Source: Pelagomonas calceolata
Taxonomy: Eukaryota
Assembly (NCBI GenBank): GCA_918797485.1
Contig: CAKKNE010000004.1
Location: forward strand, 3,472,001 to 3,536,000
Direction of reading: 5' to 3'
DNA length: 64,000 nt
The notes under the pieces are model-generated. The model searched no databases and was not told the origin of the DNA. It saw nothing but the letters and a program-made list of their open reading frames with translations. How positions within the stretch are numbered: position 1 is the stretch's first letter; every line of letters starts with the position of its first letter. Positions 5,650 through 36,155 of this stretch are shown here, in pieces. A program made the translations under genes and the position numbers.

Positions 5650-7436
5650 ATGAGGCCGCGCGTCCTCTGCTTGTGCGGCCTCCTCGGAGCAGGATGCAGC
5701 CTCACCATCTATCCGCCGGCGCCGGGCGACGAGGTCGACGCCACTGCTCATTTATCGATCGACGGCCGAGAGCTGCCGCTCGTCGTCGAGCCCGGCTCCG
5801 GGAAGCGCTGCGACGGGCACCCGGCGCTCCCGTCCAGCCGCGCGCGCTTCGCGAGCGACGGGACCACGCGCGCCATCCTCAGCCTCGGCGCGACGCGCGG
5901 CGCGAGGCTGCGCGCCGTGGGAAGAGACGTGCGAGTCGACGCGACGAACGGCTCCTTGGCGTTCGTGCTCGACCGGCCGGACCACTACGTGCTGCGCGTC
6001 GCCGGCCGCCGGTTCTACTTCTGGGTCGACCCGCTCGCGGCGCTGGCGCGGCCCGCGGGCGCGGCGTCGTACGACGCGGAGCGGCGCCCCGGCGACTGGC
6101 TCGCGCGGGCCCTCGACGCCGGCCCCGTGGCCCTCGAGGCGGGCCTCCACCGCTCGCCCGCGTTCCTGATACCATCCCGCGGCGAGCTGCACCTCGCCCC
6201 GGGCGCGGTCCTGCGCTACGACGGGAGTGGCGGCGGCGCCGGCTTCGTCACCGTGCGAGGGGAGAACGTCACCGTCGGCGGCGTCGGAACGATAGACGCG
6301 TCGGACTTCGGGCCGGGGCACAACCTCCTCCTGGACGGGGCCACGCACGTCCGCGTCCTCGACGTCTTCTTTACGAAGAGCAGATGGTGGGCGCTGCGCA
6401 TTCGCGACTGCGACGACGTGGCGCTCGACCGCGTCAAGGTCTTTAGCGGCACCGACGGCGTCGACGTCGACGCGTCGCGCGACGTGCGCATCGGTCGGGC
6501 CTTCGTGCACGCCTGGGACGACGCCATCGCGATCAAGGCCACGGTCGCCGCGGAGGCGCGGGGCGTCCTCGCGGAGCACTGCCTCGTGTCGAGCCGGAAG
6601 TCCGCCTTTAAAATAGGCACGGAGACGCTCGGGGACATCCGGGACGTCACCGTCCGCCGCTGCGACGCCTTCGAGACGGCGCGCGGCGTCTTGATGGTGG
6701 GCAAGGACGGCGGCCGCATAGGAGACGTTCTCTTCGAGGACCTCTCGATTCAGCTGCGCGCGTACGCGGACGAGCCCAAGGCGGGGCGACCCATCGTCGT
6801 GGAGCTCATGCGCCGGCTCGGCAGCTCGCGGTTCCGAACTGTGTGGAAATCAAAATTTCACGGCGCCGTCGTGCTGAATCGTCCCGTCGTCCTCCACGCC
6901 ATCGACGCGATGCCTGCTCGATGGCGTGGCGATGCCGGTTCCTCACCGCTCGACCGAACCAGGTCGGCCGCGTCAAGTGCACCCGGCGCACTGGTTGATT
7001 TCCACACAGGTTCCGAAACGTGGTCTTCCGAAGAGTGCGGAGCGATCTGCGCGCGCCGCTCTATTTCGGAGGCAACGCGCGGACCGCGCTCTCCGGGATC
7101 CGGCTCGTCGACGTCGAACTGGCCGTGGCCGCCGCGCCGTCGCCGACGAGATCGTTCCTCGCGGAGTGCTCCGAGGTCGCGCCGCGGGGCGTCGCGAGCG
7201 AAAACCTCACGGTCCGCTGGAACGGCTTCCGCAGAGCGTGGGCGGGCGTCTCCGATCGCGGCGGCGGCGCGGACTGCGGGTCGCTCTGGGTGGCGACCGT
7301 CCACACGGCCGTCGAAACCTGGCGCCGAAGCGGCGTCGCGCCGGCGCTGCGGCGGCGCTTCGGACGCGACGACGCCGCGAAGCGGAAGTCCGCGCGCGCG
7401 GAAATGGCCTCTCGCGTGCGCGAGGGGGCGAGTTAG
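5650..7436 (+). CDS. Secreted GH28-like/pectin-lyase-fold glycoside hydrolase; exons 5650-6830, 7010-7436
   Basis: Signal peptide; GTDGVDV, WDDAIAIK, AFKIGTE. Removing intron 6831-7009 joins ORF 5650 to the frame of ORF 7020-7436 (SSRFRNVVFRRV). Confidence 0.8.
6831..7009 (+). mobile_element. Introner intron (GT-AG, 179 nt)
   Basis: TSD gttccgaa at 6831-6838 and 7010-7017 (perfect); TIRs ctgtgtggaaatcaa / ttgatttccacacag. Confidence 0.95.
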
Positions 7437-7617
7437 TGTGTTTTTGTGTACTCCATTCCTCCACCTTGATCCCTGATCCCAGAGTTCACGAGAGAGTGAG
7501 AGTCGCTGTTTATTTTCGTAGGAGCCGCGTCGGCCGGAAAATCCGAGTGCGCTGGAGCGAATAGAAATTCCTCTGAGTAAACTTCATACAACGCCGCGCT
7601 TCGGAAATCCCGCGTGG

Positions 7618-7640
7618 GCTAGCGGTCTGTAAGATACTAG
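7618..7640 (-). promoter_or_regulatory. CTAG-bounded upstream motif
   Basis: Reverse complement ctagtatcttacagaccgctagc, ~60 bp before ATG 7702. Confidence 0.7.
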
Positions 7641-7701
7641 GGATGCCTAGCAAGCAATGCACAAGCATTATGGACATGATTGGCTGCCGCACTGAACTAA
7701 C

Positions 7702-9025
7702 ATGAAGCCATCACCCCCCAGCAGCCGACTGCCGCGGTGGGCGACAGGCGCCGGGCTGCTCGTGCTGCTGCCCGTCGCGGGCTGGGCCCTGGGGCGGCGC
7801 TTTGCACAAGCCCGCTGCTCGGAGACGGCCACGCTGCTCGGGTCCGACCCGCGGCTGGCAAAGCACGCTGCGCAGACACGCGAGGCGAGGGGCGAGGCCG
7901 TGTTCCCGCTGGCGTGGCCGGCGCGGGCCAAGATGCATAAAAGAGAGCCGGAGCCACTTTACAACGCACCGAACCCGACGCAGCGCGTCGCTTTCGTCGT
8001 CGCGGGCGGCCTGCGGACCTTCGCGAACGCCAACGCGCATAGATCGCTCTTCTGGCACGGGCTGCGCGCCCTCGGCGGTTCCGTCGAGGCCATCTTCGTG
8101 GTGTCGACGGACCACGGTTGGCACTCCGACGGCCGCGACTTCCTGCGTCGCTCGCACCACGCGGACCGCGCGAAAATACGAGACGCGATCGCTGCGTTTG
8201 ATCCCGTCCACGTCGAGGTCCACTCGAACGCCGACTGTTCGAACGAGACGATCGCCCGCCGGATCGCGTGCTGCCCCGCCGGTAACCCAGACTCCAGAGT
8301 CCCCCAGACGTACCCCAGGCTCCAGGCGTACTGGCTCGCCGCGTCACTCGACGTCGTCCGGGCGCGCGAGCGCGCGGTCGGGCGCCCGTACGACTGGGTC
8401 GCCAGCATACGACCCGACCTCGTCCTGTTGGAGCCGCTGCCGGTCCTCGCGAACCTTGCGCCCACGCGGCTCTATGTGGCCGCGAAGACCTTTACGACGT
8501 CCAACATCTGGGACGTGTTCTTCAGTGCGGAAATCAACCAGTGCGTCGGGCCGGCCTGGAGGTATTATTTACTATTCTGGCCGCCTCGACGCAGCGCGAG
8601 AGTGCTTGGCGTCCTCGCACGAGGCGTCTTAGGCTTACTCACCCGAACGTTTGATTTCCGCACAGGTGCTCTTCCTCGTGCCGCGCGCGCTTGTCGCCGA
8701 CTTTGGCGCGAGCTTCGCGGCGGTGCGCGACGCGTGCCACTCCGAGGCGCTCGAGACCCAGCTCCGGGACGAGTGGCGAACGAGGGGTGTGCCCTACCAG
8801 GCGTACCCGTTCGCGGCGACGCTCCTGCGGAACGAGGGCCACCTCGACTGCGGGTACTTCCGACACACCGCGCTCGACCTCTTCGGGTCGTCGCGCGGGC
8901 GCGCCGGCGGGGCAGCCGTCGACCACGAACAGTGGTGCGGCGAAATCTCCGGCCGCATCTCCGGCGGCGCCGCCCTCTTCCCGCCTGTGAACTGGACGCG
9001 GACGACTAAAACAAAGCCAAGCTAG
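7702..9025 (+). CDS. Type II membrane protein, possibly glycosyltransferase-like; exons 7702-8514, 8666-9025
   Basis: N-terminal TM; RVAFVVAGGLRTF and YDWVASIRPDL motifs. Splicing gives IWDVLFLVPR. Confidence 0.65.
8515..8665 (+). mobile_element. Introner intron (GT-AG, 151 nt)
   Basis: TSD gtgttctt (8515-8522) / gtgctctt (8666-8673); TIRs cagtgcggaaatcaa / ttgatttccgcacag. Confidence 0.92.
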
Positions 9026-9045
9026 AAAATAAAAGACTTTCAAGT

Positions 9046-11761
9046 TTAAGTAAAGTCGCCCGGTCGCCGCCGCCGCTTGGACTTCATCAGGGCATTCATG
9101 TCTGGCGTGAGGATTTCTCTCGTCATCCGGAGGAGGGTGTCGCTGGGGAGCGCTCTGCGCTGTCGGTCCGTGATGGCCGACAATTCCGTAAGCGCCCGAT
9201 GAGCTGCGTGGACGTCAGGCGTGTCGACGATGCTCGGTTTGCCGATCAGGTCGGCCGGTGTCGTCGGCGCGGCGCCTCGGCGGCGCCGCGGCGCCGTCCG
9301 CCTCGCATCTCGGATTGAGTCGGTGCGTAGTGCGCTCATCGTGACGGCGAGCGCGTCCCTGTAGGCCCCTTCGTCGTCTTCGATCTCCCTCGTCTCTGAC
9401 CCTTGTTCCGTTGACGTTCTAGACGCGCGTTCCAGCCCCTTCACGACGCCCACACGCGACGCGCCACTGTCGCGCCGAGCGGGGCGCCGCGCAAGCGCGT
9501 CCTCCACAGCCGCAGCGGCCTTGGGAGGCGAGCGGGCCCACGAGGTCTCCAATGCATTCGCGACGCGCCGTTCCAGCGCGGCCTCAAACTCGTCGCAGAT
9601 GCGCCCGTAGGCAGGCGGCGGGGCACCCCCCTTCTTCGCGGCGCCAGATCTAACAAGGGCATCGAGTGCCGCTTTCGCCTGGACGTCGCGCCGGGCATTT
9701 ACGATGCGCTCGAAGTTTTCCCGTTGTTTCGCGCCGTCGTTGAGCTCGAGCATTGCCTCAAAAAACGATCGCGGGACTTCGAGCAACATGCTCCGCCGAG
9801 TCGTCGTCGCCGTCGCGAGGAAATGGGTCAGACCCTCTGCGATCTCGACGTCGCCGAGCATGGAGCCGGGCCCGAGCCGCAGCAGATCGACGCGTTCCCT
9901 CCGACTACCGACGGCGACGGCGCCCTCGAGCTTGAGCTCGCCCTGCACCTGTGTGGAGATAAACCAGTGAGCGGACGATAATTCTTCACAAAGTCATTTC
10001 TCGGCGACAACGTGGCAGTGATGACTGAATCGAGGGGTGTAAAGCCCACACCGCCACGCCATCGAACAGTCATCGTGTCGATGGCGTGGATGCTATGATT
10101 CACCCGTATGCGAGAACACCCGCAAAATTTGATTTCTACACGGCCCTGCACCACGAACGCGATGGTGTCGCACTGCAAGCCGCGCCTCGCGACCGCTGCA
10201 CCGGCACAGACATGACGTTTAGTCGACCTCTCAGCGAGCTGCATAAACGACTCCGGCCGCCAATGCTTGAACGGTCCGAGATCCCGAAAGAACTTTCGCG
10301 TCTGCATGATCTCAACTCGCCGGAGGTGCTCGACGGCGAGTGCGTTTCGGTAGTCGTCGCCCCGCACCTCAAGTACCACGCAAGGTTCGATGCACGCCGC
10401 CGTGTCGACGTACGGCGAGTCGGCGCTCGACGCGCCAGTGACGCCGACGCTCCGGAGCAGGGCCCCCTCGCCGAGGCCCGTGCCGGCCTGTGTGGAAATC
10501 AAATTTCGGGCGCCCCACGCCGTCGTGCCGTCTCCTTCATTGAATCAGCTCGACTGCGTGGAGGTTCCACGCCATCGACGCGACGGTGTCCCATGACCGC
10601 GTCGGCTCGATGGCGTGGAGGCTCACGAAGATCCACGCAATATTTGTCAGGATAACCTAACTCACTGGTTGATTTCCACACAGGTGCCGGCCACGACGTC
10701 CTTGGTCGCGACGCCGAGCGTGTCCCACTCTGGGTCCGCCTCCGGCCGCGGGCGGCGCGCCTCCGCTGGCGCTGGAGCGGCGGCGGCCGGCGACGGCGCG
10801 TCGGCAATTCTTTGCGCCGGCACCGGCGCTTCGGCGACGTGAGGTGAGGCCGACGCCGCCGGCGTCGGGGCTGACGTCGCGACGCCGAGCGTGTCCCACT
10901 CCGGCGGCGGCGAGCACGCCACTCCGGAGGTCGCGGACACGTCCTCCGCGGGCGCCGCCGTCGGCCGCGGGCTCGCCTCCGCGGGCGCCGGAGCGCCGGC
11001 GACCGGCGTGGCTGCAATCCCTTGCGCCACCGCCGGTGCCTCGTCGACCGTGCCGCGCGCAGCGCGGGCGAGCTCGTGCGGTCGGCGCCGCAGGACTGCC
11101 CGTCGATCGCCATATAGTTCCCGGCATTCTCGCGTCATGATCGGCGTCGAGTGGCGGAAGAGCTTGATCAAGCCCGCGTGCAGCACGTAGTACTTGTCGG
11201 CGACGTCTCCCTGGAGCCACAGCAGATCCCCGGCCGCGCGCTCGGTAACCGCCAGGTGCTGGCCTGTGTAGAAATCAACCAATGGGAGATGTGCACCACC
11301 ATGCCGTCAAGCCGCCGTGAAATTTGTTTTCCACACGAGGTGCTGACAGAGTCCGGGCAGCGCCGAGGCGTCGGCGCCGGCGAACGCGCCGGACGCCCAC
11401 GCGACGAGGTCGGCGACGACGGCGGCGTCCCTCTCCCCGGGCGCGTGTTCGCGGAGCGTCGCGAGCATTGCGTCGTGGCGTGCCCGCCGCGCCTGTACGT
11501 GAATCATGATTCAGCAGCGGCGGAGACGCTTGGTTTCCGCGACAATTTGGTTTATGCACTGCGCCTCGCGCGAGCGCCCCTGGTTCGTCTCTCCTCGCGT
11601 AACTTATGCAACCAGACGCGCCAGGCTCCGTACAGCTCCCGCTGGTTTGCCAAAGCTGCCTGCCGGGCCATCCTGGTGAGGAACCGCTTCAGGAAGGCTG
11701 CCCCCCGGGCGTCGGTGTCCCATGCTGCTGCTCCCGTTTCCTTCTCTTCTAAAGCCATCAT
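9046..11761 (-). CDS. Protein with two cyclic-nucleotide-binding-like domains; 5 exons: 11761-11570, 11492-11348, 11263-10692, 10487-10152, 9948-9046
   Basis: LLWLQGDVADKYYVLHAG..GTGLGEGALL and VARRGLQCDTIAFVVQGEL..LGPGSMLGD. Five track ORFs join in frame after removal of four introners. Confidence 0.85.
9949..10151 (-). mobile_element. Introner intron (GT-AG, 203 nt)
   Basis: TSD ccctgcac (+ strand 9941-9948 and 10144-10151, perfect); slightly diverged TIRs; spliced FVVQGELK. Confidence 0.93.
10488..10691 (-). mobile_element. Introner intron (GC-AG, 204 nt), inserted in reverse orientation
   Basis: TSD gtgccggc at 10480-10487 and 10684-10691 (perfect); perfect 15-bp TIRs; spliced DVVAGTGLGEG. 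Confidence 0.95.
11264..11347 (-). mobile_element. Short introner intron (GT-AG, 84 nt)
   Basis: TSD gtgctggc (11256-11263) / gtgctgac (11340-11347); diverged TIRs; spliced GLCQHLAVTE. Confidence 0.9.
11493..11569 (-). mobile_element. Short decayed introner intron (GC-AG, 77 nt)
   Basis: TSD cgccgcgc / cgcctcgc; gene-sense ends cagtgcataaaccaaatt ... tgattcacgtacag; spliced GARARRARHD. Confidence 0.8.
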
Positions 11762-11820
11762 CGCGCTCTTGACACAGCACAGCAGCCCAGTTTTAGAGAG
11801 GGCGCTGCGTCAAAGAGCTT

Positions 11821-11843
11821 GCTAGTATCTTACAACCGCTAGC
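11821..11843 (+). promoter_or_regulatory. CTAG-bounded upstream motif
   Basis: gctagtatcttacaaccgctagc, 60 bp upstream of the minus-strand start at 11761. Confidence 0.7.
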
Positions 11844-11941
11844 TATCTGCTGCGGGTTTCTACATCGATAGCGTACTTTTGTGGGCGGAGATATGTAACA
11901 AATCACTTACTAGTGGACTGCGTCTTCGATGGAGTGGGCGC

Positions 11942-13306
11942 CTACATGAAGGCCATGCGCCGCCCGCACCCGCCGTCCGCAAACGGGCACTGCTTGAAGG
12001 AGGCGCCATGATACATGATCTTGACGCCGTGTAACTTGCAGTCCTCGTGCTTGCAGACGACCCATCTGCCAGAGTCGGGGTCCTCCTTCGCGCGCTTATG
12101 CGCCGCGAGCCTTTTCGCAGTCGAGCTCTCTTTCCTTTTGATGGCGTCCTGCACGGGATCCAGTCCGCTCTCGTTCCTCGCTTTCTCGCGCCGCCTCCTA
12201 GCCCTCCCCCTCGCTTTCTTCTTTTGGTCATCTAGTTTTGTGCGGTGATTCTCGACGGTGGCCTCGCCGTCGTGCGGGTCCGTGCCCGCCTGCTCGGCGT
12301 AGGACACGCCAGCGGCCGCGAGCGCGTTCTTCTTGCGCTTCTCGGCGAGGCGCTCCACCTCTCCTGGCGACCGCGACGCCTCTAAGGCAGCTTTCTCCTT
12401 CGCTCTTGTGAGGATGCGCTCCGCGAGCGCGTCGGCCTTGCGCGGCGCCGTGCGTCGAGTCCTCGCCCGCGGCGCGTGCGCCAGCGTCGCCGCGAGCTTC
12501 TCCGCGGCCTCCATCGCGTAGATGAGGAGGAGCCGCTCGTCCGCGTCTTTCCCTTTCGACTTGTCCACGGCGCAGCGGTAGCGCTCCAGCGTGGCCTCCG
12601 CAACCAAATCGAGGTCCGCGAGCGGCTCGTCTCCAGCTGTCTCGAGGTTGCACGACGAACGGGCGTCCAAGGGTAGGCAGCTTCCCGCCCCCCTACCAAC
12701 ATCCATCCCGCGGAGACCGCCGCCCCCCTTCCGGGAGGAAAGCGTCGGAATGCGGCGCGGTTGGTTCGCCGGATGCACCCGCAGCGCATTGGCGATGTCC
12801 GGGTCCCGCTGCTGCAGAGCGAGCTGCGTCACGACCCGCTCCGCCAAGCCCGGTTTTCCAGCGTCGGCGTAGATGTCTTTCGCCACCCTGACCGAGCCGC
12901 CGTGAAAGCTCCGCACCGAGTCATGGAGGGGCTGCTTCGTCAGGTTTTGGGGGTTACTTTCTTCTATGAGCGCCAGGCAGTCGACGACGCCGCGGATGGG
13001 GTTTCTGAGCTTGCCGTTTGTAGGCGCGTACGACGCCGCGCGGGTTCTGAGCCCGTCGACGCACGCCGCGCACGCGGCCACGACGAAGGGGCCGCGCCGC
13101 GGCCTGTTGGTGCAGCCGGCGAAGCCGAGTGCGCAGAGGCAGTGCGCGCACGTCGGCGCCTTGGTCTCCGTCGTTCTCGCGAGCAATCCTCGGCGGCCGC
13201 CGCCGAGGTCGATGACCTTCGGGCAGACGAGGCACGTGTTCGTTTGATCGGCCTCGACGCTCCCCTCGGCGTAGAACACCTTCAGCTTCTGTCTTTCCGT
13301 CGCCAT
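11942..13306 (-). CDS. Hypothetical protein with Cys/His clusters at both ends (possible zinc fingers) and a basic coiled region
   Basis: 454-aa ORF with protein-like composition; CLVC, CAHC, CAAC and CKHEDC..H..CPF..C. No family recognised. Confidence 0.55.
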   Translation of the reverse strand: MATERQKLKVFYAEGSVEADQTNTCLVCPKVIDLGGGRRGLLARTTETKAPTCAHCLCALGFAGCTNRPRRGPFVVAACAACVDGLRTRAASYAPTNGKLRNPIRGVVDCLALIEESNPQNLTKQPLHDSVRSFHGGSVRVAKDIYADAGKPGLAERVVTQLALQQRDPDIANALRVHPANQPRRIPTLSSRKGGGGLRGMDVGRGAGSCLPLDARSSCNLETAGDEPLADLDLVAEATLERYRCAVDKSKGKDADERLLLIYAMEAAEKLAATLAHAPRARTRRTAPRKADALAERILTRAKEKAALEASRSPGEVERLAEKRKKNALAAAGVSYAEQAGTDPHDGEATVENHRTKLDDQKKKARGRARRRREKARNESGLDPVQDAIKRKESSTAKRLAAHKRAKEDPDSGRWVVCKHEDCKLHGVKIMYHGASFKQCPFADGGCGRRMAFM

Positions 13307-14732
13307 GCTTCGCTCTATCTAGCGTTTCGCTGCGCGGTGTTGCAGCAGCGCTGACAGCTGATCTATAGAGACCAGCACCCGCGCTCCCAGCGCGTAAATG
13401 GCAGCACGCGGCGCGCCTGATCCTCTGCTCTGCCTCTCGCGCCAAAGCTGCAGTCAAATGCCGGCCGCAAAAACGCGCGAGGGACGCTAGGTAGAGGCAT
13501 CGGGAGCGCTACACACTAAATACAATCCTCCTTACAACAGAAAAACCGGCAGCACCGGGGAACCCCGCGCGACAAGACAAGAGCTGGGCCATCTAGCGGC
13601 GACGCGGCCCGCGGCCCTGGTCGTGTATCTCTCCGAACGCCGCCGCCCTCGCGCCGTCGCCGAGATGACGTACTCCGAGCATGCGCTCCCATCAAACGCG
13701 GCGTCCTGTTCGTCGACCGGGAACGCGACATCGCCCTAGATGCGCACGGCCTGTGGCCCTACATCCAGCCCGGGGCCCGCCGAGACCTCGAGCGCGTCGA
13801 CTTTCCGCTCTTCGAGACTAGGACACCACCAGCAGGTCCGGTTCGTGCAACCTTCACGCCATCGAGCAGACGTAGTTCGAAACGACGCCGCGTCGACGGC
13901 GTACTGATGCAGGCCTTCGATTCATGATGTGCAGGATCGTCAAGACCTCCATCCGAAGAGGATGCGAGCCCGCGCGCGTCGTCAGAGGTGGCGCGTCGAC
14001 CGCGGCGCGCCGTTTCACAGCGTGCGCGCCGAGCAGAGGTCGGCGAACGAAGAGTGCCCACGCGTCGTTAGACGATTTGTGCGCGGCGCGCGAGAGTCTC
14101 CCGCGCCGCCGAGGCGGGGCTGGGCTGCAAGCTTGCTACCGCACTACTCCCTCTCCTGAGGCGCAACGCTGCGACGCGTGCTGGAGCTGTTGAAGCGTTC
14201 GTCCTACGCTCCTTTGGAACCGCTACTCTGCCTGGCACCAGCGCTCGCGCGTGCGGCGAGGCAAGCTGGCAATTGCGCAAGTTTTTGGTCAAGCCCCGGG
14301 TTTTCGGGCCTGTGATTTGTCCTTTTTGCGAGCGTCTTCGATTCTCAGCACACACTATACACTATTACACGCTAGTAAAAGGCGCGAGCCGGCCGCCGGC
14401 CGGCGTTTTGGCGCGCAGACATAGCCACCAATATCTCCTCTGCCTCGCATACTTTTGCGAGCGACAGAGCACCGTCAAAAAGTTTCACAAGTACGCCGCC
14501 GTGTCAAACAAACGCGACGCCGCGCGACCGCGAGCGTTTCTGCAAACCAAATTTCTCACAAGCATAGAAATTGCCCAAAAAACGCCGACGCCGCGACGAC
14601 GCGGCACCACAAAACACAGCGTCTCACCCGCCACACAGCTACACATCGCCACGAGACTGGAGAGCCCACCAAAACCATTCCCGCGCGAGACGAGCGCTTC
14701 TCCGTTCCGCAGGCAGACGCGCCGCATAAAAC

Positions 14733-15308
14733 ATGTCCGGCAAGAGCCAGAGCACCCAGATGGACGAGGACAAGGTCGTCGATTACTGCGGCGCCAGCGG
14801 GGCCAAGAAGGCCAATTTGACCACGCCGCGCCTGATCATTACGTCCAAGACCGGCCCGTACACGACGGTCAGCGCCGACGCCACGGTCGAAGACACCTGC
14901 CTCAAGGTCGGCGCGCCGACCGCCGGCCTCACGCACCTCATGCTCCACCTCCGGATGGGGGACGTCGAGATGGACGGCGACGGCGACGCGAACAACCCCG
15001 ACGTCACGGTCCTCATTAACGCGTCGACGAAGAAGAACAAGTTCGTCTCCGCCTTCCTGCCGGCGCTGGCCGCCTTGGCCCTCACGGGCCGCATGGAGCG
15101 CCGCGCGGCGGCCATCGAGGACTGCATCAACGAGACCGGCGAGCTGCGCAAGGAGCTCGCCCGAGACGCGGCGCGCGCGTGCCTGGTACGTCTCGCGCGT
15201 CGCGTCGCCGGCGTCGCCCGCCGTCGATCCTCCCCCGCGCAGGCCGACCTGCCGAACAAGACGACCGACGAGGCCTTGGCCACGGTGGGCAAGGCCAACC
15301 GCGTGTGA
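14733..15308 (+). CDS. Hypothetical protein
   Basis: 191-aa ORF with A-rich leader (aaaacATG) and high GC3. No family recognised. Confidence 0.55.
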   Translation: MSGKSQSTQMDEDKVVDYCGASGAKKANLTTPRLIITSKTGPYTTVSADATVEDTCLKVGAPTAGLTHLMLHLRMGDVEMDGDGDANNPDVTVLINASTKKNKFVSAFLPALAALALTGRMERRAAAIEDCINETGELRKELARDAARACLVRLARRVAGVARRRSSPAQADLPNKTTDEALATVGKANRV

Positions 15309-15953
15309 GGAGCCAGCGTCTTTCTTTTCTCGTGGTCGTTTCTCACTCAATCTATCGTAGGTTAGGGGAGCCCGAATCCGACGTGCGGCCGGCGAAGAAG
15401 CACTGCGGCGGCAACGGCAACCAGCACGACACCAGCGCCCCATTTATTGTTTAATGCGAAACCCAAACCAAGTCCGCTCCGCAGGAATGCGACGATCAAC
15501 CAGACCAAGTAGATTTGATAACCGTCGCCGCGCTCGCGACGACGACGCCCTTCCGCGTGCTAGGAGGGTAAAAGTCTAGATGACGACGTCGCTGTCACCC
15601 AGGGACTCGTCCGTCGACGGCGTCGGCGGCTGCTCGCGTCGGCGGCGGCGCCGTCGCTCGGTCCCTCGTCCCGACGCCGAGGCCCACCAGGAGGAGGCTG
15701 CCCGAGGTGGCTGCCGTGCGCCGGCGCGGGCGTCGAGCGGGCGCGCCTCGGGGCCCGCAACGCTCGTCGCGCCGCAGTCGCGGTTTCGCGCTACGTCGAG
15801 CCCACGCACACCAACACCAAGCCCTGAGCCTGAGCGTGAATTCACTTTGTGCTTGTACGGGTTAATGTTTGGCGGCCGAGAGCAGGCCTTTGACGCGAAA
15901 TTTCCTCTCTGCAAGAATCGTATAGGCGCCGGGGGCCATGTGTGAAAATCATT

Positions 15954-15977
15954 GCTAGTGTCTTACATGCCGCTAGC
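15954..15977 (+). promoter_or_regulatory. CTAG-bounded upstream motif
   Basis: gctagtgtcttacatgccgctagc upstream of the M28 peptidase. Confidence 0.7.
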
Positions 15978-16118
15978 TAGCTTGGTCTTTGTGTTGCCGT
16001 CCTGACGGGTCAGAGCGTCGCATGCATGCGCTAGGACCGATAGAATTCGTCCGCAGTGGCTGCACGCTGCAGACTGCAGGCCTGATCAAGGAATGAAAAG
16101 CAAATAGCAAACGGCTGA

Positions 16119-18398: not shown

Positions 18399-18481
18399 CA
18401 ATTTTGTCGTCGTCTTTGGTATACCGAACGATTCTTACCGAGGGAGAGAGGGAGGGCGATGGCGAGGGCGAGCACGACGCA

Positions 18482-20491
18482 TCACGCGGCGAGGACGAGC
18501 ACGAGGAGCGCGGCGCTGACGCCTGAGAGGCGGTGGGCGGCGTCGACAGTGCGGGTTGCGGTCGGAGCCACGGTCGGAGCCACGGTCGGAGCCACGGTCG
18601 GCCGGGGCGTTGGAAACGGACAGTCCACGCCTTGGCGCATCACGCCGCACGATGTCGACGCGCACTTGGTGCCGGCAAACGCGTCTTGAAAGGTGAGGCT
18701 GCCGTCCCCATCGGCAAACTCAACGTCGTCGTCGACGCACCAGCCGAGGTCCTGGTCGAAGGACGTGGCGCTGTGGAACATGTAGCTCATGTCCGTGACG
18801 CTGTCGACCGTCCAACCACTAATGTCTTGGTCGAAGGCAATGGCGGCAGCGAACATCCCTATCATGTCCGTAACGCCCGCGGTATTCCACGCGCCTATGT
18901 CTTCGTTGAAGGACGAGGTCTCCTGGAACATATCAGCCATGTTCTTGACGCTAGAGGTATCCCACGCGCCTACGTCCTGGTTAAAGGCCAAGGCACCGTT
19001 GAACAAGCCCCCCATGTGCGTGACACTGTCGACCGCCCAATCACCGATGTCCTGGTTGAAGGACGAGGAACCGTAGAACATCCCGTACATGGTCTTGACG
19101 CCGGAGGTATCCCACGCGCCGATGTCCTCGTTGAAGGTATTCGCAGATGCCGGAAGCACGCAGGAATCACATTCGGGGCAGGGTTCATCATCATCCTCGT
19201 CCATCCAATCCTGCCGCGCACAAAACAGCCACGACATGTCCGTCACCCCCGATGTCTCCCACGTCGAGATGTGGCCGTACGTCGACTCGGCGGCCGTCGC
19301 GTCCGAGAACCACGCCGCGACTGCCGTTCGAATGTGACTATCGGTCATGACGTAGCCCGTGGGGCGCGGCGTCGGTGCGGGGACGCAGTTGCTGCTTTGC
19401 ACGACACCGCACGACGTCGACTCACACGCGGCGCCAGTAAACGCCTCTTCGAAAGCCTCTTCGAAATCCACGTCGTCGTCAACGCACCAGCCGAGGTCCT
19501 GGTTAAAGGCCAGGGCTTCCATGAACATCTCTTCCATGCTCATGACGCTGTGGACCGCCCAACCACCGATGTCTTGGTTAAAAGACGTGGCTTCGGCGAA
19601 CATCCCGCCCATGTCCTTGACGTTGGAAACGGGCCAGTTGCCGATGTCCTGGTTGAACGACGAGGCGTAGCCGAACATTTCGCCCATAGACGTGACGCTG
19701 TGGACCGCCCAACCACCAATGTCCTGGTCGAAGGCCGAGGCGCCGCGGAACATCTCGTGCATATCCGTGACGCTGCGGACCGCCCAACCACCGATGTCTC
19801 GGTTAAACGACGAGGCCTCGTTGAACATCCCGTACATGGTCTTGACGCCGGAGGTATCCCACGCGCCGATGTCCTGGTTAAAGGCGGAGGCGCCGTGGAA
19901 CATCCAGTCCATCCTTGTGACGCCAGAGGTATCCCATGGGCCGATGTCCTCGTCGAAGGACGACGTCGACGATAAGACGCAGTCATCATAGCACCCGTCG
20001 CCATTCGCGCAGTCCTCAATCATCCAATCAGCACGCACGCAAAACAACCATGACATGTCCGTCACCCCCGATGTCTCCCACGTCGAGATGTGGCCGTACG
20101 TCGCCGCTGCGGCCGTCGCGTCCGAGAACCACGCCGCGACGGCCGTTTTTAAGTTGCTGTCGGTCATGACGTAGCCCGAGAGCACGCGCCGCTGCTCGTA
20201 GTGCCGCTGCTCGTAGTTTGATATCGCAGCCACGTCGCGGTCGCCCGCGGGCGCCGCGGCGGACTGGGAGCCCAGGATGGGGCTGCTCAATCTATGATGC
20301 TGCGCGGCTGCCCGTGAGCCCACGCGCCGCTGCTCGTAGTTTGATATCGCAGCCACGTCGCGGTCGCCCGCGGGCGCCGCGGCGGGCTGGGAGCCCAGGC
20401 TCCAGGTGGGGCTGCTCAATCTAATTATGGGGCTGCGCTGCGCGGCGGCCTGTATGCCTAGTACCGCCAGGGCTGCGAAGGATGGAAACAT
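18482..20491 (-). CDS. DUF285/BspA-type repeat surface protein, probably GPI-anchored
   Basis: Signal peptide [12 protein letters not shown]; ~25-aa repeats FNQDIGxWDTSxVxxMxxMF in two duplicated modules; PTVA repeats; hydrophobic C-terminus. Confidence 0.9.
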
Positions 20492-20661
20492 TCGTGCGTT
20501 TCTTGCTGCTGTTGCTAGTCTCTGCGTTAGGACAGCTGTTGGGATCCTTGGTGTCATCTGACGCCTCTATGTGTCCGGGTCCAGTAAGGTTGTAAGGGTG
20601 GGCGCACGCATGCAACCGGTGCGAACGAGGTCATTTGCGCGATCTTTTTTTGCGGCATCGA

Positions 20662-20911: not shown

Positions 20912-22515
20912 ATGTCGGAGCAGGCCGAGGGCTGGCACACCGACGCGAGCGGCCTGCGCGTCAAGAAGTGGGACCCGCACCGCGAGACGCGGCGGCGCGG
21001 CTACGAGCGGCAGCTGCAGCAGCACCAGGTGCGGCGGCTCGAGGGCGCGACGCCGTCGTCCTACGCCTCGAACCAGCCGGGCACGCTCGCGGCGCGCGGC
21101 GCCGCCGCGCGCGCCAAGGCGCAGCAGTCGCGGGACGCGCGCGTGGGCCGCGCGAAGAAGTTCAACGACCGCCACGCGGAGGCGCTCGTGCGGCGTCAGA
21201 AGCAGGGCGCCGCGGCGTCGCACCGCGAGAACGACCGCTACATGGCCGACTTCCGCGACGCGTACGGCCTCGCGGCGCCGGCCGAGCCGGCCGGCGGCCC
21301 GCGCGGCGCGGCCTGCGCCTTCTCGCGCGCGCGCGTCGCGTCGTGGGGCAATCGAGAGGTCGACGCGGCCGCGGCCGACGCGTTCCGGCGGGGCCCGCGC
21401 GACCCGCGCGGCGCGCTCGTCGACTGCAGCGACCGGCCGCTCCTCGCGATGTCCGTGTCGGACGACGGCGCCGACGTCGTCGCGGGCGGCGCGGACCACG
21501 CGGCCCACGGCGTCGACGTGGCGCGCGCCGGCGCCAGGCCCCAGCGCCAGTACCACGGCAAGGCGCGCGGCCACCACGAGTGGGTGACGGGCGTCGCGCA
21601 CTGCGGCGGCCGGAGCGTCGCGACGTGCGGCGCCGACGGGCGGCTCTGCCTCTGGCGCTCGCCGCACGCGTGCGAGGAGCTCGTCACCGCGGACGGCGCG
21701 GCGTCGCTCTCCGTGCTGCTGGCCGACGCCGCGCGGCCGCAGCTCCTCCTGGCGGCGGGCTACGACGGCACGGCGCGGCTCTTCGACGTCGGCGGGCGGC
21801 GCGCGCGCGAGGCGGGCCGGCTGGCGCCCGGCGGCGGCGCCGGCCGCGCGCCGGTCCTCTGCGCCGCCTGGGACCGGGAGGCCTGCGGCCTCGGCGACCG
21901 CGACGGCCGCGTGCTCGTCTACGACCTCGCGACCTGCTCGCGGACGCGGCTCCTCCGGCTCCCAGCGGCGTTTGCGCGATGCCGCGCACGCGACTCACCG
22001 GTCGCTTTCCACCGCGCAGGCCCCACGAGGAGGCGGGCCACTGCGTCGCGCTCTGCGCGGTCGGCGACCGCCTCGTGAGCGGCCACCAGGACGGCCGCGT
22101 GCGGGGCTGGGACGCGCGCGACCGCGACGACCGGCCGGCCTGGACCGCGCCCGCGCACCGGGGCCGCGCCGGGGCCGGCGCGGCCTCGTGCGTCGCGGCG
22201 CTGGCGGACGACGCCCTCGTCGCGACGTGCGGCGCGGACCGGCGCGTCTGCGTCGTCGACCCGCGCGCGCCGGACGCGCCCGTCCACGCCTTCCGCGAGC
22301 ACCGCGACTTCCCCTACTGCCTCGCGACGCTCGGCGGGGACCTCATCTTCACGGGCGCCGGCGACGGCGCGCTGCTCTGCCACGACGTGCGCGGCGCCGG
22401 AAGCTGCGCGTGGGGCCTCGGCGCGGGCCTGAGCGCCGTGCGCTGCGTCGACGCGCGGCCGGGCCAGCTCGCCGCCGCGGGCGACGACGGCAACGTAATG
22501 GTCTGGGAGTTTTGA
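20912..22515 (+). CDS. WD40-repeat protein; exons ~20912-21957, 22020-22515
   Basis: GHHEWVTGV..TCGADGRLCLW, AGYDGTARLFD, SGHQDGRVRGWD, GDDGNVMVWEF. The frame change is explained by a short intron ending ccgcgcag at 22019. Confidence 0.85.
21958..22019 (+). other. Probable GC-AG intron, decayed introner-like
   Basis: 3' end actcaccggtcgctttccaccgcgcag resembles the introner end actcactggttgatttccacacag. Donor position uncertain (21958 or 21949). Confidence 0.6.
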
Positions 22516-22534: not shown

Positions 22535-23403
22535 TCACATTACGTCCCCCCCTCCGTCGTCGAAGTCGAGCATGAAGTCCTGCGCGTCGACGAGCTCACC
22601 CGCGACGACGATCACGTCGGAGCCGTCCTCGACGTCGAGGTCGACGAGCGACTCGCCCACGAGCCGCGTCACCTCGCGCAGCTCGTACTCGTTCATCTCG
22701 CCCAGGACGCGGAACGAGAACACGCCGCGTACCTCGCGCGCGAACCTGTGTGGAAATCAACCAGTGAGTTAGGTTGCCCGACGGCCGCGTCAAGCGCCTC
22801 GCCGCCGCGGCGCCGAATTTCGTCTCCGTGAAATTTGATTTCCACACAGGCGCGATACGCGGCGTGGTCGGGTGACAAGCGCAGCACGAGCCGCGTCGGC
22901 GTCCCGCCGCAGACGTAGACGCCCTCCCAGGCGCCCGCGAGGGGTATTGACGCGTCGGCGGCCTCGTCGGCGTCGACGCGCTGGAGCGTGAACCGCGAGC
23001 AGGCCGCCATGATGTCACCTTCCCCATCAGTAATTTCGCCCGACAACGTACAGTTGTCCTCGAAGCGGCCCCGCAGCCCGACCGTGATCCAGCCCTCGGG
23101 CTGGTCGAGCCAGGCGCCGGCGACGAGCTCGAAGGCGCCCTCGGCGTCAGGCAGGTCGCCCCGCACCTCGAACGCGCCCTTGACGGCGTCCGCGCGGTCG
23201 CGGCCCTCCTCGAGGTGGGCCCGCACGACGCCGAGGAGCCGCTCGCGCCACGACGACGGCTTCGCCGCCGGCGCCGCATTTGTTGGTGGCCGCGCCGGCG
23301 CGCGGCCGTTGATTATTTCGCAGTCCGGGCCCGCGAGCGAGGTGCAGCGCTGTGTAGTTGCTTGTCGGAGGAGGAGGAGGAGGAGGGCTAGGGCGTGGCG
23401 CAT
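22535..23403 (-). CDS. Hypothetical secreted protein; exons 23403-22859, 22745-22535
   Basis: Signal peptide MRHALALLLLLL; internally repeated (GAFEV/GVFSF-RxxG) module; splicing gives DHAAFAREVRGVFSF. Confidence 0.7.
22746..22858 (-). mobile_element. Introner intron (GT-AG, 113 nt)
   Basis: Perfect TIRs at 22746 and 22849; gene-sense TSD gtatcgcgc (intronic, +1 nt) vs gttcgcgc (exonic); CTAAC branch-like site. Confidence 0.92.
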
Positions 23404-25315: not shown

Positions 25316-25352
25316 CAATTCTAGTAGTTCTCTCGCGTCGATGGCGTCGCAA

Positions 25353-29866: not shown

Positions 29867-31623
29867 ATGGCCGATTTCAAGGGCGACGACGAGGTCGCCG
29901 CAGCAGCGGACGCCGTCGCGGACGTGAAGCTAGAAGAAGAGAAAGCACCGGAGTTTCCGCAGTTCCCGTGGCTTCCGCCCGGCAAAAAACCGCTAGCCGA
30001 CGGCGAGTACGACTGCATCGTCATGGGTACCGGATTAAAAGAGTGCGTCCTGTCCGGCTTGCTAGCCACAGCGGGAAAAAAAGTGCTCCACGTGGACCGC
30101 AACTCGTACTACGGCGCCGACTCCGCCTCGCTGAACCTAAGCAACTTGTTTGCGAAGTTCAACAACGGCAAGCAGCCGGAACAGCGCATCTTTGATGTGC
30201 TAGGCCAGAACCGCGACTATAATGTTGATCTGATCCCGAAGTGCATCATGGCGTGTGGTAAATTAGTAAAAATGCTGATACATACGAAAGTAACAAGATA
30301 CTTGGAGTTTCGGTCGCTAGATGCGTCCTACGTGTATCGGAACGGCAAGATTTATAAAGTGCCGGCGACGAAGATGGAGGTCGTCAGTAATGGTTTACTA
30401 GGCTTGTTCGAGAAAAGGCGCATGATCAACTTCCTCATGTATTTGCAATCTTATGATGAAAAAAAACCAGAAACACATAAAGGAAGGGATTTGACGCGGA
30501 TGACGATGCGCCAGCTCTACGACGAGTACGGGCTCGAGAAGGGGACCAGGGAGTTTGTAGGGCATGCCATGGCTTTACAGTTGAACGACGACTACATGGA
30601 TCAACCGGCTTTGTCGACGGTGAAGGCTATTATTATGTACTGCTACTCGGTCGATAGATATGGCAAGAGTCCTTATGTTTATCCGATGTACGGGTTAGGA
30701 GGCCTGCCGGAAGGGTTTTCGCGGTTATGTGCGATTCACGGCGGCACGTTCATGTTGAATCGCTCAGTAGATGAAGTATTATTTGATAATGAGGGCAAGG
30801 CCTGGGGCATTCGCGGAGACGATGAGATTGCAAAGGCGAAGATTTTTATTGGAGATCCCTCCTACTTCCAGCCTTATCAGAAGTGTAGGGAGATCGGCAA
30901 GGTTGTGCGGTCCATCTGCTTTTTAAATCATCCGATCCCCAATACCAATGACGTCGACAGTCTACAGATCATCATCCCCTCGACGCAGCTGAATCGGAAG
31001 AACGACATATATGTCGTGCTCATTTCCAATTCGCACCAGGTGACAGCTGCAGGCAAGTACGTGGCCATTTGTTCGACGGTCGTCGAGACGAGCGCACCGA
31101 TCAGTGCATAAATCAAATTGTCGCGGCGCGCCTCGCCTATGGTTGAATTACGGCATCGACGCGACGTCTGCTGGATATGCGTTTGATTTGCACACAGGAA
31201 CCGATGCGTGAACTCGCGCCGGCGCTGGGGCTGCTCGGCACGATCATGACGCGCTTCGACGACGTCGTACCGCTTTACGAGCCCCTCGCCGACGGCCGCG
31301 CGGACCAGTGCATAAATCAAATTGCAGCGGCGCGTCTTCGCAACTGCTACCACCATGGCCTCCACGCCATCGACGCGACTTCAGCACGACGGCGTGGCGG
31401 TGTGGTCCTCACGGATCGATTCAGCCACGGCCGCGTCGCCGAGAACTCACTGGTTGATTTGTGCACAGGAGCGGACAACTGCTACATCTCCAAGAGCTTC
31501 GACGCGACGTCGCACTTCGAGACGACGTCGCTCGACGTGATCGACATGTACGAGCGCATCACGGGCGAGAAATTAGATCTGGACAAGATGGCCGACTCGG
31601 CGCCGGACGAGGACGGGTACTAG
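29867..31623 (+). CDS. GDI: Rab GDP-dissociation inhibitor; exons 29867-31093, 31198-31297, 31469-31623
   Basis: EYDCIVMGTGLKECVLSGLL, VLHVDRNSYYG, RDYNVDLIPK, SPYVYPMYGLGGLPEGFSRLCAIHGGTFMLN, spliced C-terminus SKSFDATSHFETT. Confidence 0.96.
31094..31197 (+). mobile_element. Introner intron (GC-AG, 104 nt)
   Basis: TSD gcaccgat / gaaccgat; TIRs cagtgcataaatcaa / ttgatttgcacacag; spliced VETSEPMRELAP. Confidence 0.92.
31298..31468 (+). mobile_element. Introner intron (GC-AG, 171 nt)
   Basis: TSD gcgcggac / gagcggac; TIRs cagtgcataaatcaa / ttgatttgtgcacag; spliced DGRADNCYIS. Confidence 0.93.
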
Positions 31624-31642
31624 AGGGGGCCACATGTATAAA

Positions 31643-32655: not shown

Positions 32656-34275
32656 ATGGCCGTGCACGTCTCCCGGGCCGAGTTCGAGGCCCAAGCGGGC
32701 CGTAGCACGCTGCCGACGATCTCCTGTCCCGAGTGCGGCGTGCCCACGATCGCGCGGGACGACGGATTTCTCTGCCTCGACTGCGTGCGCGCGACGTACG
32801 ACTGGCGCGCGCCTTTGGAGGCGCACCTGAAGAAGCACCCCAAGCTTTTGACTTTAAGGCGCTGCACGGGCTGCGACCGCGTCGAGACGACGGCGGCGAA
32901 CAAGAAGGAGCGCCGCTGGGAACGAGGAGATAGGGACACCGACGAGCTGCTGGCGGTCTTGTTGAGACGCGTCAAGGCGCAGCTCTTCGGGAAGAAGGCC
33001 CTGGATCTGGTGGACGGTTTGTCCGCGGGCCTCAAGGCCGGCGACCCGCTCGCGCTCCGGGACGCGCGCCTCGTCTGGACGGAGCCGCACTCGCGGCGCC
33101 TGAAGTTGGAAGTTGACGTGGCGCACGCGTCCGTGCGCCAGCGCCTGCTGCTCGAGTTTGTGGAAGAGCGCTGCAAGTGCGCGGACTGCGCGGGCGAGGC
33201 GCGGGAACGGAGAAACCGAAAAATGGGCAAGGGCGGCGGCGACTTCGGCGCGCGGGTTCAAATAAGAGCGCACGGCGGCTCCTGCGCGCGGACGATGCGG
33301 TCGCTCGAGGACGCGATCCGCGCCATCGGGAAAACAGGTTTGATGTTCGGCGCGGCGCGCCTGCCGCGCGGCAAGGGCCTGGACGTGGACTTCGCGCAGG
33401 AGAAGGACGGTGATAGATTTGTCGACGAGCTGCGGCGGGCCGGGCGCGCGCCGCTGCGCGTCGCCTCCAAGACGCGGAAGCTCGTGACGCACGTAGCGAC
33501 CCGTGCGGACGTATATTCACGCCGTCGATGCGGCTCACCGGTCGATGTGCCCACACAGGATCCGAAGGCCAACACCGTGGAGTACCAGAAAACCATTCTG
33601 CTGGAGGTGCCGCCCATATCAAAATGGGACCTCGTCGTCAAGGAGCCGCGCGGCGGCGGCGGGCCGGCCCTTTACTTGGTGTCGTCGGTCCGGCGCGAGA
33701 TACGGCTGGATCGCGTCGACGGCGTTGGTGAGGAAGAAGTGAACGGCGAGCAGTTCTTCCGCAAGCCCTTTGAGAGCGTGGCGTCGGCGGATGCGTTAAT
33801 AGACGTGCGGGTCGTCGACGCCGTCCCGTTGGACGACACGAGCGTTATGGTACAGCGGCACGAGGGCGACGCACCTGTTCAAGCTGATGCGTCGCGGCTG
33901 CCCTTGGCGTCGCAGAAATCAGACGCCGTCGTCAAGGCCTACGATGTCGAGTCCATCGTGGGCGCGGACGTCAAAACGAGCAGTCGCTACGTCCTCGTCG
34001 CGCCCGGCGGCAAGAGGGACGTCGGCGACTCCACGACGACGGCGTCGACGGTGCTCTCGCGGAAACAACAGCGCCACGCCAAACGGCGGGCGAACTCATC
34101 AGCGTCGGTGGCCTCGGACGCCCCCACCGAGCGCGACTTCGGCGAGATCGAGTTCCGCGAGCTCCTCGACCAGCCCGACGCGATCCCTGAAGAAGGGGAA
34201 GAACTCGACTTGGAGCGCCTGCGCATTGCGTCGGAGGACTCGGAGGCGCTCGACGCGGAATTCTTTGGTGCGTAA
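32656..34275 (+). CDS. NMD3-like 60S export adaptor (divergent); exons 32656-33492, 33559-34275
   Basis: CPECG..CLDC, CTGC, DARLVWTEPHSRRLKL, CADC, ARVQIR, KLVTH|DPKANT; acidic C-terminus. Confidence 0.8.
   Translation: MAVHVSRAEFEAQAGRSTLPTISCPECGVPTIARDDGFLCLDCVRATYDWRAPLEAHLKKHPKLLTLRRCTGCDRVETTAANKKERRWERGDRDTDELLAVLLRRVKAQLFGKKALDLVDGLSAGLKAGDPLALRDARLVWTEPHSRRLKLEVDVAHASVRQRLLLEFVEERCKCADCAGEARERRNRKMGKGGGDFGARVQIRAHGGSCARTMRSLEDAIRAIGKTGLMFGAARLPRGKGLDVDFAQEKDGDRFVDELRRAGRAPLRVASKTRKLVTHVATRADVYSRRRCGSPVDVPTQDPKANTVEYQKTILLEVPPISKWDLVVKEPRGGGGPALYLVSSVRREIRLDRVDGVGEEEVNGEQFFRKPFESVASADALIDVRVVDAVPLDDTSVMVQRHEGDAPVQADASRLPLASQKSDAVVKAYDVESIVGADVKTSSRYVLVAPGGKRDVGDSTTTASTVLSRKQQRHAKRRANSSASVASDAPTERDFGEIEFRELLDQPDAIPEEGEELDLERLRIASEDSEALDAEFFGA
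33493..33558 (+). other. In-frame 66-nt GT-AG intron, decayed introner-like
   Basis: gtagcgac...ctcaccggtcgatgtgcccacacag; removal restores the NMD3-like KLVTHDPK. Confidence 0.75.
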
Positions 34276-34290
34276 GATGTTGTGACATGA

Positions 34291-35265
34291 TTACGTGCCT
34301 ACGTACTGGACGGCCAGGTCCTTTTCGGAGCTTGATCGGAGGAAGCTCAGCAGTGCCGAGGCCGTTTGTTCGGGCTGCTCCCACGGCAGGCAGGCCCGGG
34401 CGTCCCGAATGATGTATCCGCCGGCTGGAAACGGGAGCTGCTCGAGCGCCTCGCGCGTGCGGTTCACGGGATCGCGGGCTCCCGGGAAGACTCCTCGGAT
34501 GATCGAAGTCGGGACCATCAAATCCGCAAGCAGGCCGCCCCGCTCGTCGCGCCAGGCACCGCCGGCGGGTATCGTCCCGCAGAGATACGACAAAGTAGCA
34601 AATCTCCCGCGAGAGTCGCGAGCGCTCTCATAACACTGCTTCACCCAGGCATCGTCCGATTCGCCGGCGAATAGATTTTTATCGGTAAACGACCGTATGC
34701 GCTCGCCCTTCTTCCCGCGGAGCCGGCGAAAGAACAGATTTCCAACGGGCGACGAAGAAACCGCCCAGGCGACTCGCTGGATGCGCCGCGGGGCGCGGGG
34801 CACGGCCGGCGCGGTGCGGTCCGCCTCGACGCCCTCCGACGCCACGAAGCTCAGAGGCGGCGGCGAGAGGCAGGCCACGCCGCGCACCGTGTCCGTGCCG
34901 CCGAGGCGCCACATCTCGAGCGCCACGGGCAGGAGCCCGCCCTGGCTCACCAACACGCACGGCTCCCCGATCACCTCCCGGACGTAGGCGTCAAGCTGCC
35001 CCGCCCAGACCTCGGGCTTGTAGAAGCGCCTCGGTTTTGGCTTGGCGTCACCGGTACCCAGTAGATCGGGCGCGTGTGTGTCGCCGCCGTCCCACACATC
35101 CTGAAAACGCGCGTAGAATTGTCGATCGATGCCCACGCCCACCGGCGGGATCAATAGCAGCGGCGGCAGGTCGGCGGCGCCGCGCGTGACGCGAGCTCCA
35201 TAGGTTTCTCGGCCGTATTTATGCTGCAGAGCTGCGCAGCCTGTTATCAGTGCGAGCCGCAGCAT
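34291..35265 (-). CDS. Alpha/beta-hydrolase-fold protein, probably plastid-targeted
   Basis: Signal peptide; PLLLIPPVGVG, APDLLGTG, VLVSQGG, CLPWEQP. Confidence 0.75.
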   Translation of the reverse strand: MLRLALITGCAALQHKYGRETYGARVTRGAADLPPLLLIPPVGVGIDRQFYARFQDVWDGGDTHAPDLLGTGDAKPKPRRFYKPEVWAGQLDAYVREVIGEPCVLVSQGGLLPVALEMWRLGGTDTVRGVACLSPPPLSFVASEGVEADRTAPAVPRAPRRIQRVAWAVSSSPVGNLFFRRLRGKKGERIRSFTDKNLFAGESDDAWVKQCYESARDSRGRFATLSYLCGTIPAGGAWRDERGGLLADLMVPTSIIRGVFPGARDPVNRTREALEQLPFPAGGYIIRDARACLPWEQPEQTASALLSFLRSSSEKDLAVQYVGT

Positions 35266-35418
35266 TGTTGAGCTGTGCCGATCTAATACAGCTCCTTTAC
35301 TTTCGCGGCAAAGCTACGCGCGTGCCAGTGAGCTTTATCCAGCCTGCAGCCTCCTTGCACTGGCGCGCTCTCACAACCTAAATCGGTGCGGAGGAGGCCG
35401 AACAGCTGCAAATAAAAG

Positions 35419-36155
35419 ATGCCTCGTCAAGCGCTGCGTCGATCGCTGCTCCTTGTTGCAGCAGCCGCAGCGCTGAAACCGCTGCAGCGCCGCGCTGCAC
35501 TCAGTGGCCTGACCAGCGCTGCACTCGTGCAAACGCAGCCGGCGCGGGCCGACGAGCTCTCGTTCAGCAAAGCGAGAAATGGTCTCGAGTACGCGGACGC
35601 CAAGGTCGGCAGCGGCTCTCCGTTTAGAACCGGCCAGCGCGTTGCCGTCGACTACGTCATGTCGACGACAGGCGCACGGTACGGCTCGAAGATCGACGCC
35701 ACTAAGGACCGGAACGAGCCGTACTCGTGGGTCCTCGGCGACGGCACGACCATCCTAGGTCTCGAGCAAGCGATCCTCGGAGGCGACGGCGTGCCGCCGA
35801 TGCTCCCGGGAGGCGTGCGACGCTTAATTGTTCTGGTCTGTGCATAAATCAAAATGCCACGCCGTGCTGAATCTTCGCGTCGACCTCCACGCATCACCCG
35901 ACTCACTGGTTGATTTGTGCACAGGTTCCCGCGGAGTTGGCCTACATCGACAAGGCTCGCCCCGCGAAGAACTCGTTGCAAATACAGGACTGCGAGAAGG
36001 GTCGCGGGCCGGTTCCTCCTAACGCGCCGGAGAGAGCTGGCGATATGGGTGCCGGCGAGTACCAGCGGTTCAAGAACATTTATTGCAACCCGAATCGGCC
36101 GTACCAGCCGGACCTCGTGCTTGATGTCCGGCTGTTCGGGAGGAAGGGTGGATAA
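35419..36155 (+). CDS. FKBP-type peptidyl-prolyl isomerase, thylakoid-lumen type; exons 35419-35829, 35925-36155
   Basis: Signal peptide plus RR..ARA Tat-like motif; GLEYADAKVGSG, VAVDY, ILGLEQAI, MLPGGVRRLI|VPAELAY. Confidence 0.9.
35830..35924 (+). mobile_element. Introner intron (GT-AG, 95 nt)
   Basis: TIRs ctgtgcataaatcaa / ttgatttgtgcacag; diverged TSD gttctggt / gttcccgc. Confidence 0.9.

Follow-up and report, generated by a model that had tools for sequence, protein, structure and literature searches.

Short inverted-repeat elements spliced as introns in a 64,000-nucleotide stretch of Pelagomonas calceolata DNA, and their likely origin by transposition

The DNA considered here is a stretch of 64,000 nucleotides from Pelagomonas calceolata (contig CAKKNE010000004.1), called the window below, in which six genes are interrupted by ten short elements that we denote a–j. 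Each element is bounded by terminal inverted repeats (TIRs) of 15 bp and flanked by an 8-base direct duplication. An earlier note on this DNA had reported ten TIR-bounded copies in six genes, and all of its positions were confirmed, with c–f sharing a single frame of 715 aa. Its coordinates are a mixture of duplication starts (genes on the + strand) and TIR starts (genes on the − strand), and its tally of ten overlooked one further copy, the eleventh, which is decayed and sits in the NMD3 gene (33493–33558). The copies, 11 in all, are confined to the first 36 kb of the window, with four of them in one gene; the last 28 kb (36000–64000) gave no end-profile match of note.

Intron a (6831–7009, + strand; 179 nt, GT-AG, phase 2) lies in a GH28-like gene (5650–7436, +; Pfam) and consists of the upstream duplicate (6831–6838) and the element (6839–7009), with the exon copy of the duplicate following at 7010–7017. 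Intron b (8515–8665, +; 151 nt, GT-AG, phase 0), whose element (8523–8665) is in reverse orientation, interrupts a gene with no Pfam match (7702–9025, +). Four introns are found on the − strand in the gene for the 715-aa cNMP-binding-like protein (11761–9046, −; Pfam): c (9949–10151; 203 nt, GT-AG, phase 0; element 9949–10143), d (10488–10691; 204 nt, GC-AG, phase 0; element 10488–10683, in reverse orientation), e (11264–11347; 84 nt, GT-AG, phase 1; element 11264–11339) and f (11493–11569; 77 nt, GC-AG, phase 0), the last with a decayed element at 11493–11561. A predicted intron g (22746–22858, −; 113 nt, GT-AG, phase 2; element 22746–22849) occurs in another gene with no Pfam match (23403–22535, −). 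The Rab GDI gene (29867–31623, +) holds intron h (31094–31197, +; 104 nt, GC-AG, phase 0; element 31102–31197) and intron i (31298–31468, +; 171 nt, GC-AG, phase 1; element 31306–31468), which is in frame and stop-free. Finally, intron j is predicted in an FKBP gene (35419–36155, +) at 35830–35924 (+; 95 nt, GT-AG, phase 0; element 35838–35924), and the eleventh copy corresponds to a predicted intron of 66 nt (33493–33558, +; GT-AG, phase 0), also in frame and stop-free, in NMD3 (32656–34275, +).

From TIR to TIR the elements measure 69–196 bp, and their common ends and an inner hairpin motif recur in ten copies across unrelated genes. Short, non-coding and bounded by TIRs, they have the build of miniature inverted-repeat transposable elements (MITEs). 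Not every copy is as clear as the earlier note had it: one base is inserted in the 5′ TIR of e and the TIRs of f differ at six positions, while those of c and h each contain four mismatches. The 8-base direct duplication does flank all ten, as claimed, but is exact only in a, c and d; there is one mismatch in b, e, f, h and i, three mismatches in j, and a one-base insertion in g, where the donor-side copy has nine bases and intron g is therefore the element plus nine. With the exception of j, the donor-side duplicate is thus within one edit of the exon copy, and each donor-side 8-mer fits its own downstream exon and not the other copies. Read in gene sense, the upstream duplicate starts with GT (a, b, c, e, g, j) or GC (d, f, h, i), and the acceptor CAG comes from the element end in 10 of 10, both as described earlier. 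The donor-side ends of b, f, h and i read CAGTG, and the remaining 16 ends CTGTG or variants. Intron phase is 0 in six, 1 in two and 2 in two, and seven of the ten lengths are not divisible by three.

A weight matrix for the TIR gave 18 matches of at least 14 bits in the window, as against 0, 0, 0, 1 and 0 in five shuffles, a control that is partly circular because the matrix was trained on 16 of these same ends. The site-specific duplications are an independent signal beside it, the chance of a 7/8 match between two 8-mers at the GC content of the window being about 0.0007. A scan for TIRs plus duplication that used no motif recovered only four of the ten copies and was noisy (33 matches, versus 5–11 in shuffles); it revealed no second family of elements in the window, and an Rfam search gave no matches. 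Copies from other loci pile up deeply in the DNA runs. In run X3 the summed depth reached about 23,000 at position 6986, versus 14–18 on single-copy pieces, a rough sign of some 10^3 copies and not a count. The inner hairpin motif also occurs away from TIRs, at 13851–13905, 25333–25347, 38032–38045, 52660–52675 and 57715–57737; the first of these, in a transcribed stretch, may be a relic or another repeat.

Splicing was assessed by aligning RNA reads at 99% likeness to positions 5600–15400 of the window, which hold copies a–f. Raw reads came from one sample (X21, X22), with 2–28 reads per joint, and contig runs X6 and X12 represent two further studies whose RNA nature is a guess; runs X16–X20, with small word shares, were left out. 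At all six copies the joints skip the element plus eight bases: 179, 151, 203, 204, 84 and 77 bases at a–f, respectively. The joint of a was seen in X21, X22, X6 and X12, those of b, c and f each in four of four RNA runs, and that of e in X22, X6 and X12, so that every joint other than that of d recurs in both contig runs. Read strand was consistent with gene strand. Where the two duplicates differ, at b, e and f, the joint overlaps are 3, 1 and 3 bases, which shows that it is the downstream duplicate that stays in the message. In the DNA run X3 the sequence of c, e and f is present without a skip. The junctions agree with the coordinates predicted for a–f, and the earlier statement that the element and one duplicate are removed exactly, restoring the frame, is borne out by RNA at these six sites. 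At a threshold of 88% likeness, reads of copies at other loci overwhelmed the alignment, and no true junction appeared. At 7009–7011, some 3,400 and 3,000 polyA reads run from the element end into a single foreign coding-like sequence; these reads come from a copy retained unspliced in some other, highly expressed gene.

For h and i the corresponding support comes from protein. The spliced GDI frame is identical over 456 residues to a transcript-derived protein of 493 aa (P0123), and extra residues are missing from 146 of 148 GDI homologues at h and from 144 of 148 at i. Homologues likewise give the spliced frame at g and j, and removal of duplicate plus element yields long frames in all six genes. 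These data bear on the possibility that the elements are merely tolerated insertions, or MITEs that later struck old introns, instead of introns made by insertion. Such a reading could draw on i and the NMD3 copy, which keep the frame, contain no stop and are read through by public annotations, and on the many unspliced copies from other loci among the polyA reads. The exact skips in RNA refute it for a–f, as the transcript protein does for h and i; moreover, homologues conserve the downstream duplicate as coding sequence, seven of the ten intron lengths are not divisible by three, and relatives lack an intron at the sites inspected. We regard this explanation as barely credible.

Absence of the introns in relatives was seen at GDI. 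From 80 GDI loci, the six closest that span the h and i sites were inspected. Loci L002, L080 and L003, taken as DNA because of their extent, have empty sites with a single copy of the target at both h and i, and L003, a syntenic piece of 16 kb, has one at j as well and is also without the NMD3 copy. The empty i site of L001, L002 and L080 is identical in sequence to the upstream duplicate; compared with these relatives, it is the exon copy that has changed and the donor that has not. Proteins 98% identical to the window GDI, encoded on contigs of 4.5–109 kb, likewise lack the h and i insertions, and g is absent from 58 of 102 homologous proteins spanning its site, some of which may be transcripts. 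The comparison with empty sites thus shows, in part, recent gain at h, i and j, with different Pelagomonas lineages carrying different insertions. Run X14, whose pieces had 0–1 differences at a depth of 3–6, therefore does not represent an independent strain and contained no empty site. When positions 30000–31090 of the GDI gene are set against L001, L002 and L004, the protein is about 97–98% identical but the DNA only 82–84%, a divergence that points to deep, perhaps cryptic, lineages.

We conclude that the elements are, with little doubt, introns removed together with one 8-base repeat and likely non-autonomous DNA transposons (MITE-type introners) whose transposase, probably of the hAT superfamily, is encoded elsewhere. 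Such a transposase would bind the TIRs, cut the target with an 8-base stagger and insert the element in either orientation, repair then duplicating the 8 bases. Since CTG at the start of an end is CAG on the opposite strand, the element, as its sequence shows, brings the 3′ splice site with it; with a target that begins in GT or GC, the upstream duplicate provides the 5′ splice site. Splicing would take the upstream duplicate and the element, keep the downstream duplicate and leave the protein unchanged, as seen in RNA at a–f and in transcript protein at h and i, and as is presumed at g and j. Exon insertions without a usable donor would be purged, which would account for GT or GC donors in 10 of 10. 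Copies would then decay, their interiors shortening, their TIRs wearing and their donor-side duplicates drifting, into ordinary-looking introns, a course visible in part among the present copies. The earlier proposal that the donor derives from the upstream duplicate and the acceptor from the TIR is supported by RNA at six of six copies and by the empty sites in relatives.

The orientation of the copies bears on whether the elements spread as DNA or as RNA. Spread by RNA, in which a spliced intron reverse-splices into another message that is then copied back to DNA, has been proposed for other introners (10.1101/2022.06.06.494994), among them fungal and some Micromonas ones, and would suit both the stable hairpins into which the spliced copies fold and the NMD3 donor-side 8-mer, which fits its target poorly, as if a whole intron had been inserted. 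Left and right ends can be distinguished, and by this measure b and d run opposite to the transcript, yet are spliced. Two reversed copies among ten are not expected from reverse splicing and largely refute it; TIRs are present at both ends, and the donor-side 8-mers match their own exons and not other copies. Taken together, reversed spliced copies, TIRs and site-specific duplications indicate insertion by cut and paste of DNA and not by reverse splicing, and we consider spread by RNA very improbable.

Several observations weigh against transposon origin as set out above. The duplication is imperfect in 7 of 10 copies. At NMD3 only four of the eight bases match between the donor-side and exon copies in the window, and the donor-side peptide is the same in 20 of 20 read-through proteins, a pattern that duplication followed by neutral drift fits poorly. 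The joint of d (204 bases) was represented by 4 + 1 raw reads from one sample and was not found in the contig runs. Splicing of g, j and the NMD3 copy is predicted, the junction reads covering a–f. No match to a transposase family was found by Pfam in 53 + 14 window frames (171 frames of at least 150 aa were listed), which agrees with the earlier note that the window holds no transposase; among the rows listed of the published P. calceolata gene table, there is one Tc1-like transposase and no hAT domain. No long element with these ends turned up in the window, and viral contigs and prokaryote genomes gave neither such an element nor a transposase. Neither excision nor new insertion was observed, and present activity is thus not demonstrated.

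An 8-base duplication with short TIRs is the signature of hAT transposons, whose TIRs start with a (C/T)ARNG-like motif, hAT-like ends starting CAGTG. P, Merlin and Mutator are DDE superfamilies with duplications of 8–9 bases. The window elements have the 8-base duplication of hAT, and a hAT enzyme is inferred because of this cut and because the largest published family of P. calceolata introners is classed as hAT (PMC12130899). The same elements, spliced in the same way, might instead be moved by one of the other DDE superfamilies. Most of the ends start CTGTG and not CAGTG, although four left ends do start CAGTG; no hAT protein is found here or among the gene-table rows listed; and in PMC12130899 the hAT label of family fam2 rests on a nucleotide match to a RepBase element, with another family, fam5, labelled Mariner and given a 9-base duplication. 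Against this stand the duplication length with short TIRs and the published class, and we judge a non-hAT enzyme unlikely, though far less so than spread by RNA. A viral vector was considered and rejected: viral contigs scanned for exact TIRs had 53 and 14 single matches, in no case with a second end properly paired to the first, and no match to an 18-base end pattern, so that the single matches were treated as chance. Prokaryote genomes gave 11 single TIR matches and no element. One of these matches lies at the very end of a short contig of a bacterial metagenome-assembled genome (L151, 2647–2675), where 27 bases of the element end stand together with GT; the contig is probably an assembly chimera or a misbinned piece.

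The NMD3 copy and site g suggest that donors may change after insertion. In NMD3 the worn TIR begins eight bases after the GT; the exon copy starts with GA, from an Asp codon that L003, yeast and human share, and the donor side starts with GT. Among 45 homologues spanning the site, 20 read into the copy and 25 are without it. The shared donor-side peptide stands in some of these 20 beside a better kept TIR, and none of the 20 has a GA donor-side intermediate. The copy may have gained its donor soon after insertion, or else have brought a foreign flank with it. At site g, 117 proteins were compared; leaving aside 15 that do not span it, 102 were counted, of which 44 read into g, 17 into a different insertion nearby and 41 into neither. 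The different insertion, at about 22710, 12 codons downstream of the g site, is not present in the window and appears to share the inner motif. Within the 44 read-through proteins the donor-side copy has seven bases in 20, nine in 18, eight altered in three and is intact in three, figures that were back-read from translations and sampled by cluster (at most 15 listed for each), and they correspond to about four events and are not allele frequencies. The 7- and 9-base forms reflect two distinct changes, both at position +3, next to a TIR that is intact. These forms, with the GA-to-GT difference in NMD3, raise the tentative and still rather doubtful possibility that a borrowed donor is re-tuned after insertion and that this can be read in wild Pelagomonas; in view of the deep synonymous divergence between haplotypes, neutral drift may instead account for the forms at g. 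A GA-to-GC donor gain at h was also considered and dropped as undecidable, since relatives have Glu, Gln or Thr there. If selection does drive re-tuning, elements could colonize sites without a canonical donor in a spliceosome that uses GT and GC. Pelagomonas is one of the ocean's most abundant eukaryotes, and segregating insertion and donor variants would make the fitness cost and the fixation of new introns directly measurable. No paper on donor re-tuning or insertion polymorphism in Pelagomonas was found in a literature that excluded subscription papers, bioRxiv supplements and picture-only figures.

Introners of this general build are known. Those of Aureococcus anophagefferens, described reportedly by Huff, Zilberman and Roy in 2016, are said to carry one splice site and to take the other from the duplication, as the window elements do; the two are likened by description and belong to different genera. 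Roy et al. (10.1101/2020.10.14.339549) liken the 8-base cut and the insertion in both orientations to those of Aureococcus, whose introners are treated also in PMC11282704. Their subjects, introner-like elements (ILEs) of classes 6, 8 and 10 in Polarella glacialis and those of Symbiodinium, resemble the window elements in an 8-base GHN6 duplication and insertion in either orientation, and a later change of GA donors into other donors, in Symbiodinium GA-to-GC, was detected by comparing donor and exon copies. These dinoflagellates commonly use GA donors, unlike P. calceolata, for which 10 of 11 family rows in PMC12130899 show no GA donor. Micromonas introner elements are likewise repeated introns that differ in presence between lineages (Simmons et al., 2015, PMC4540971); they differ from the window elements in a 3-base duplication and, in the example given in PMC11282704, in that the acceptor and not the donor is co-opted.

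For P. calceolata itself, Guerin et al. (2022; PMC9481584 / 10.1101/2021.10.25.465678) report 956 putative introners with GT and GC donors, an AG acceptor and conserved TIRs, all features of the window elements, and Gozashti et al. (2025; PMC12130899, Dataset S2) report 11 introner families, the largest classed as hAT. Published lengths peak near 200–210 bp, and the largest family is listed as ‘co-opt 5′ carry 3′’. The window elements fit fam2 (340 copies, 202 bp, TIR of 13, GT 281 / GC 42, ‘co-opt 5′ carry 3′’, hAT) in donor mix, length and mechanism, a comparison made by description and not by sequence; the row for fam2 states no 8-base duplication. The kind of element, its mechanism and its occurrence in P. 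calceolata are thus already known, and the suggestion in the earlier note that these subfamilies may be uncatalogued is unsupported, introners of the same build having been published for this species (PMC9481584, PMC12130899). What the window adds is a clean, RNA-checked case of intron birth by transposition, of which the mechanism, the genus and the species are already in print. Insertion and donor variants among wild haplotypes could be put to use in measuring how selection acts on new introns.

Over 456 aligned residues the spliced GDI does not differ from the P. calceolata protein CAH0374578.1, the next named matches being from other pelagophytes. CAH0374578.1 (P0121) itself includes i, translated as 57 additional residues, the GC-AG intron having been missed, and the public protein P0314 equals the NMD3 frame with its copy read through. 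Public annotations thus read through two of the 11 copies, i and the NMD3 copy. Since GC-donor or in-frame copies are read through in annotations, the protein sets for P. calceolata, like its introner counts, are probably off. Eleven copies in 64 kb, together with this read-through, suggest that the published counts (956, and 340 for fam2) may be low.

Other features of the window include two short intron-like segments without TIRs on the + strand, at about 21970–22019, which shares a branch-point-like motif of the element end, and at 15186–15242, where no joint was listed in the 99%-likeness RNA alignment. At 58180–64000 (+) there is an open frame that reaches at least 1940 aa and has no match in Pfam. 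A repeat of high depth at 18457–20307 was tried as a transposon and rejected, being identified by Pfam as a DUF285 gene; this repeat gene (18482–20566, −) has many paralogues. A multi-copy intergenic repeat is located at about 15600–15980.

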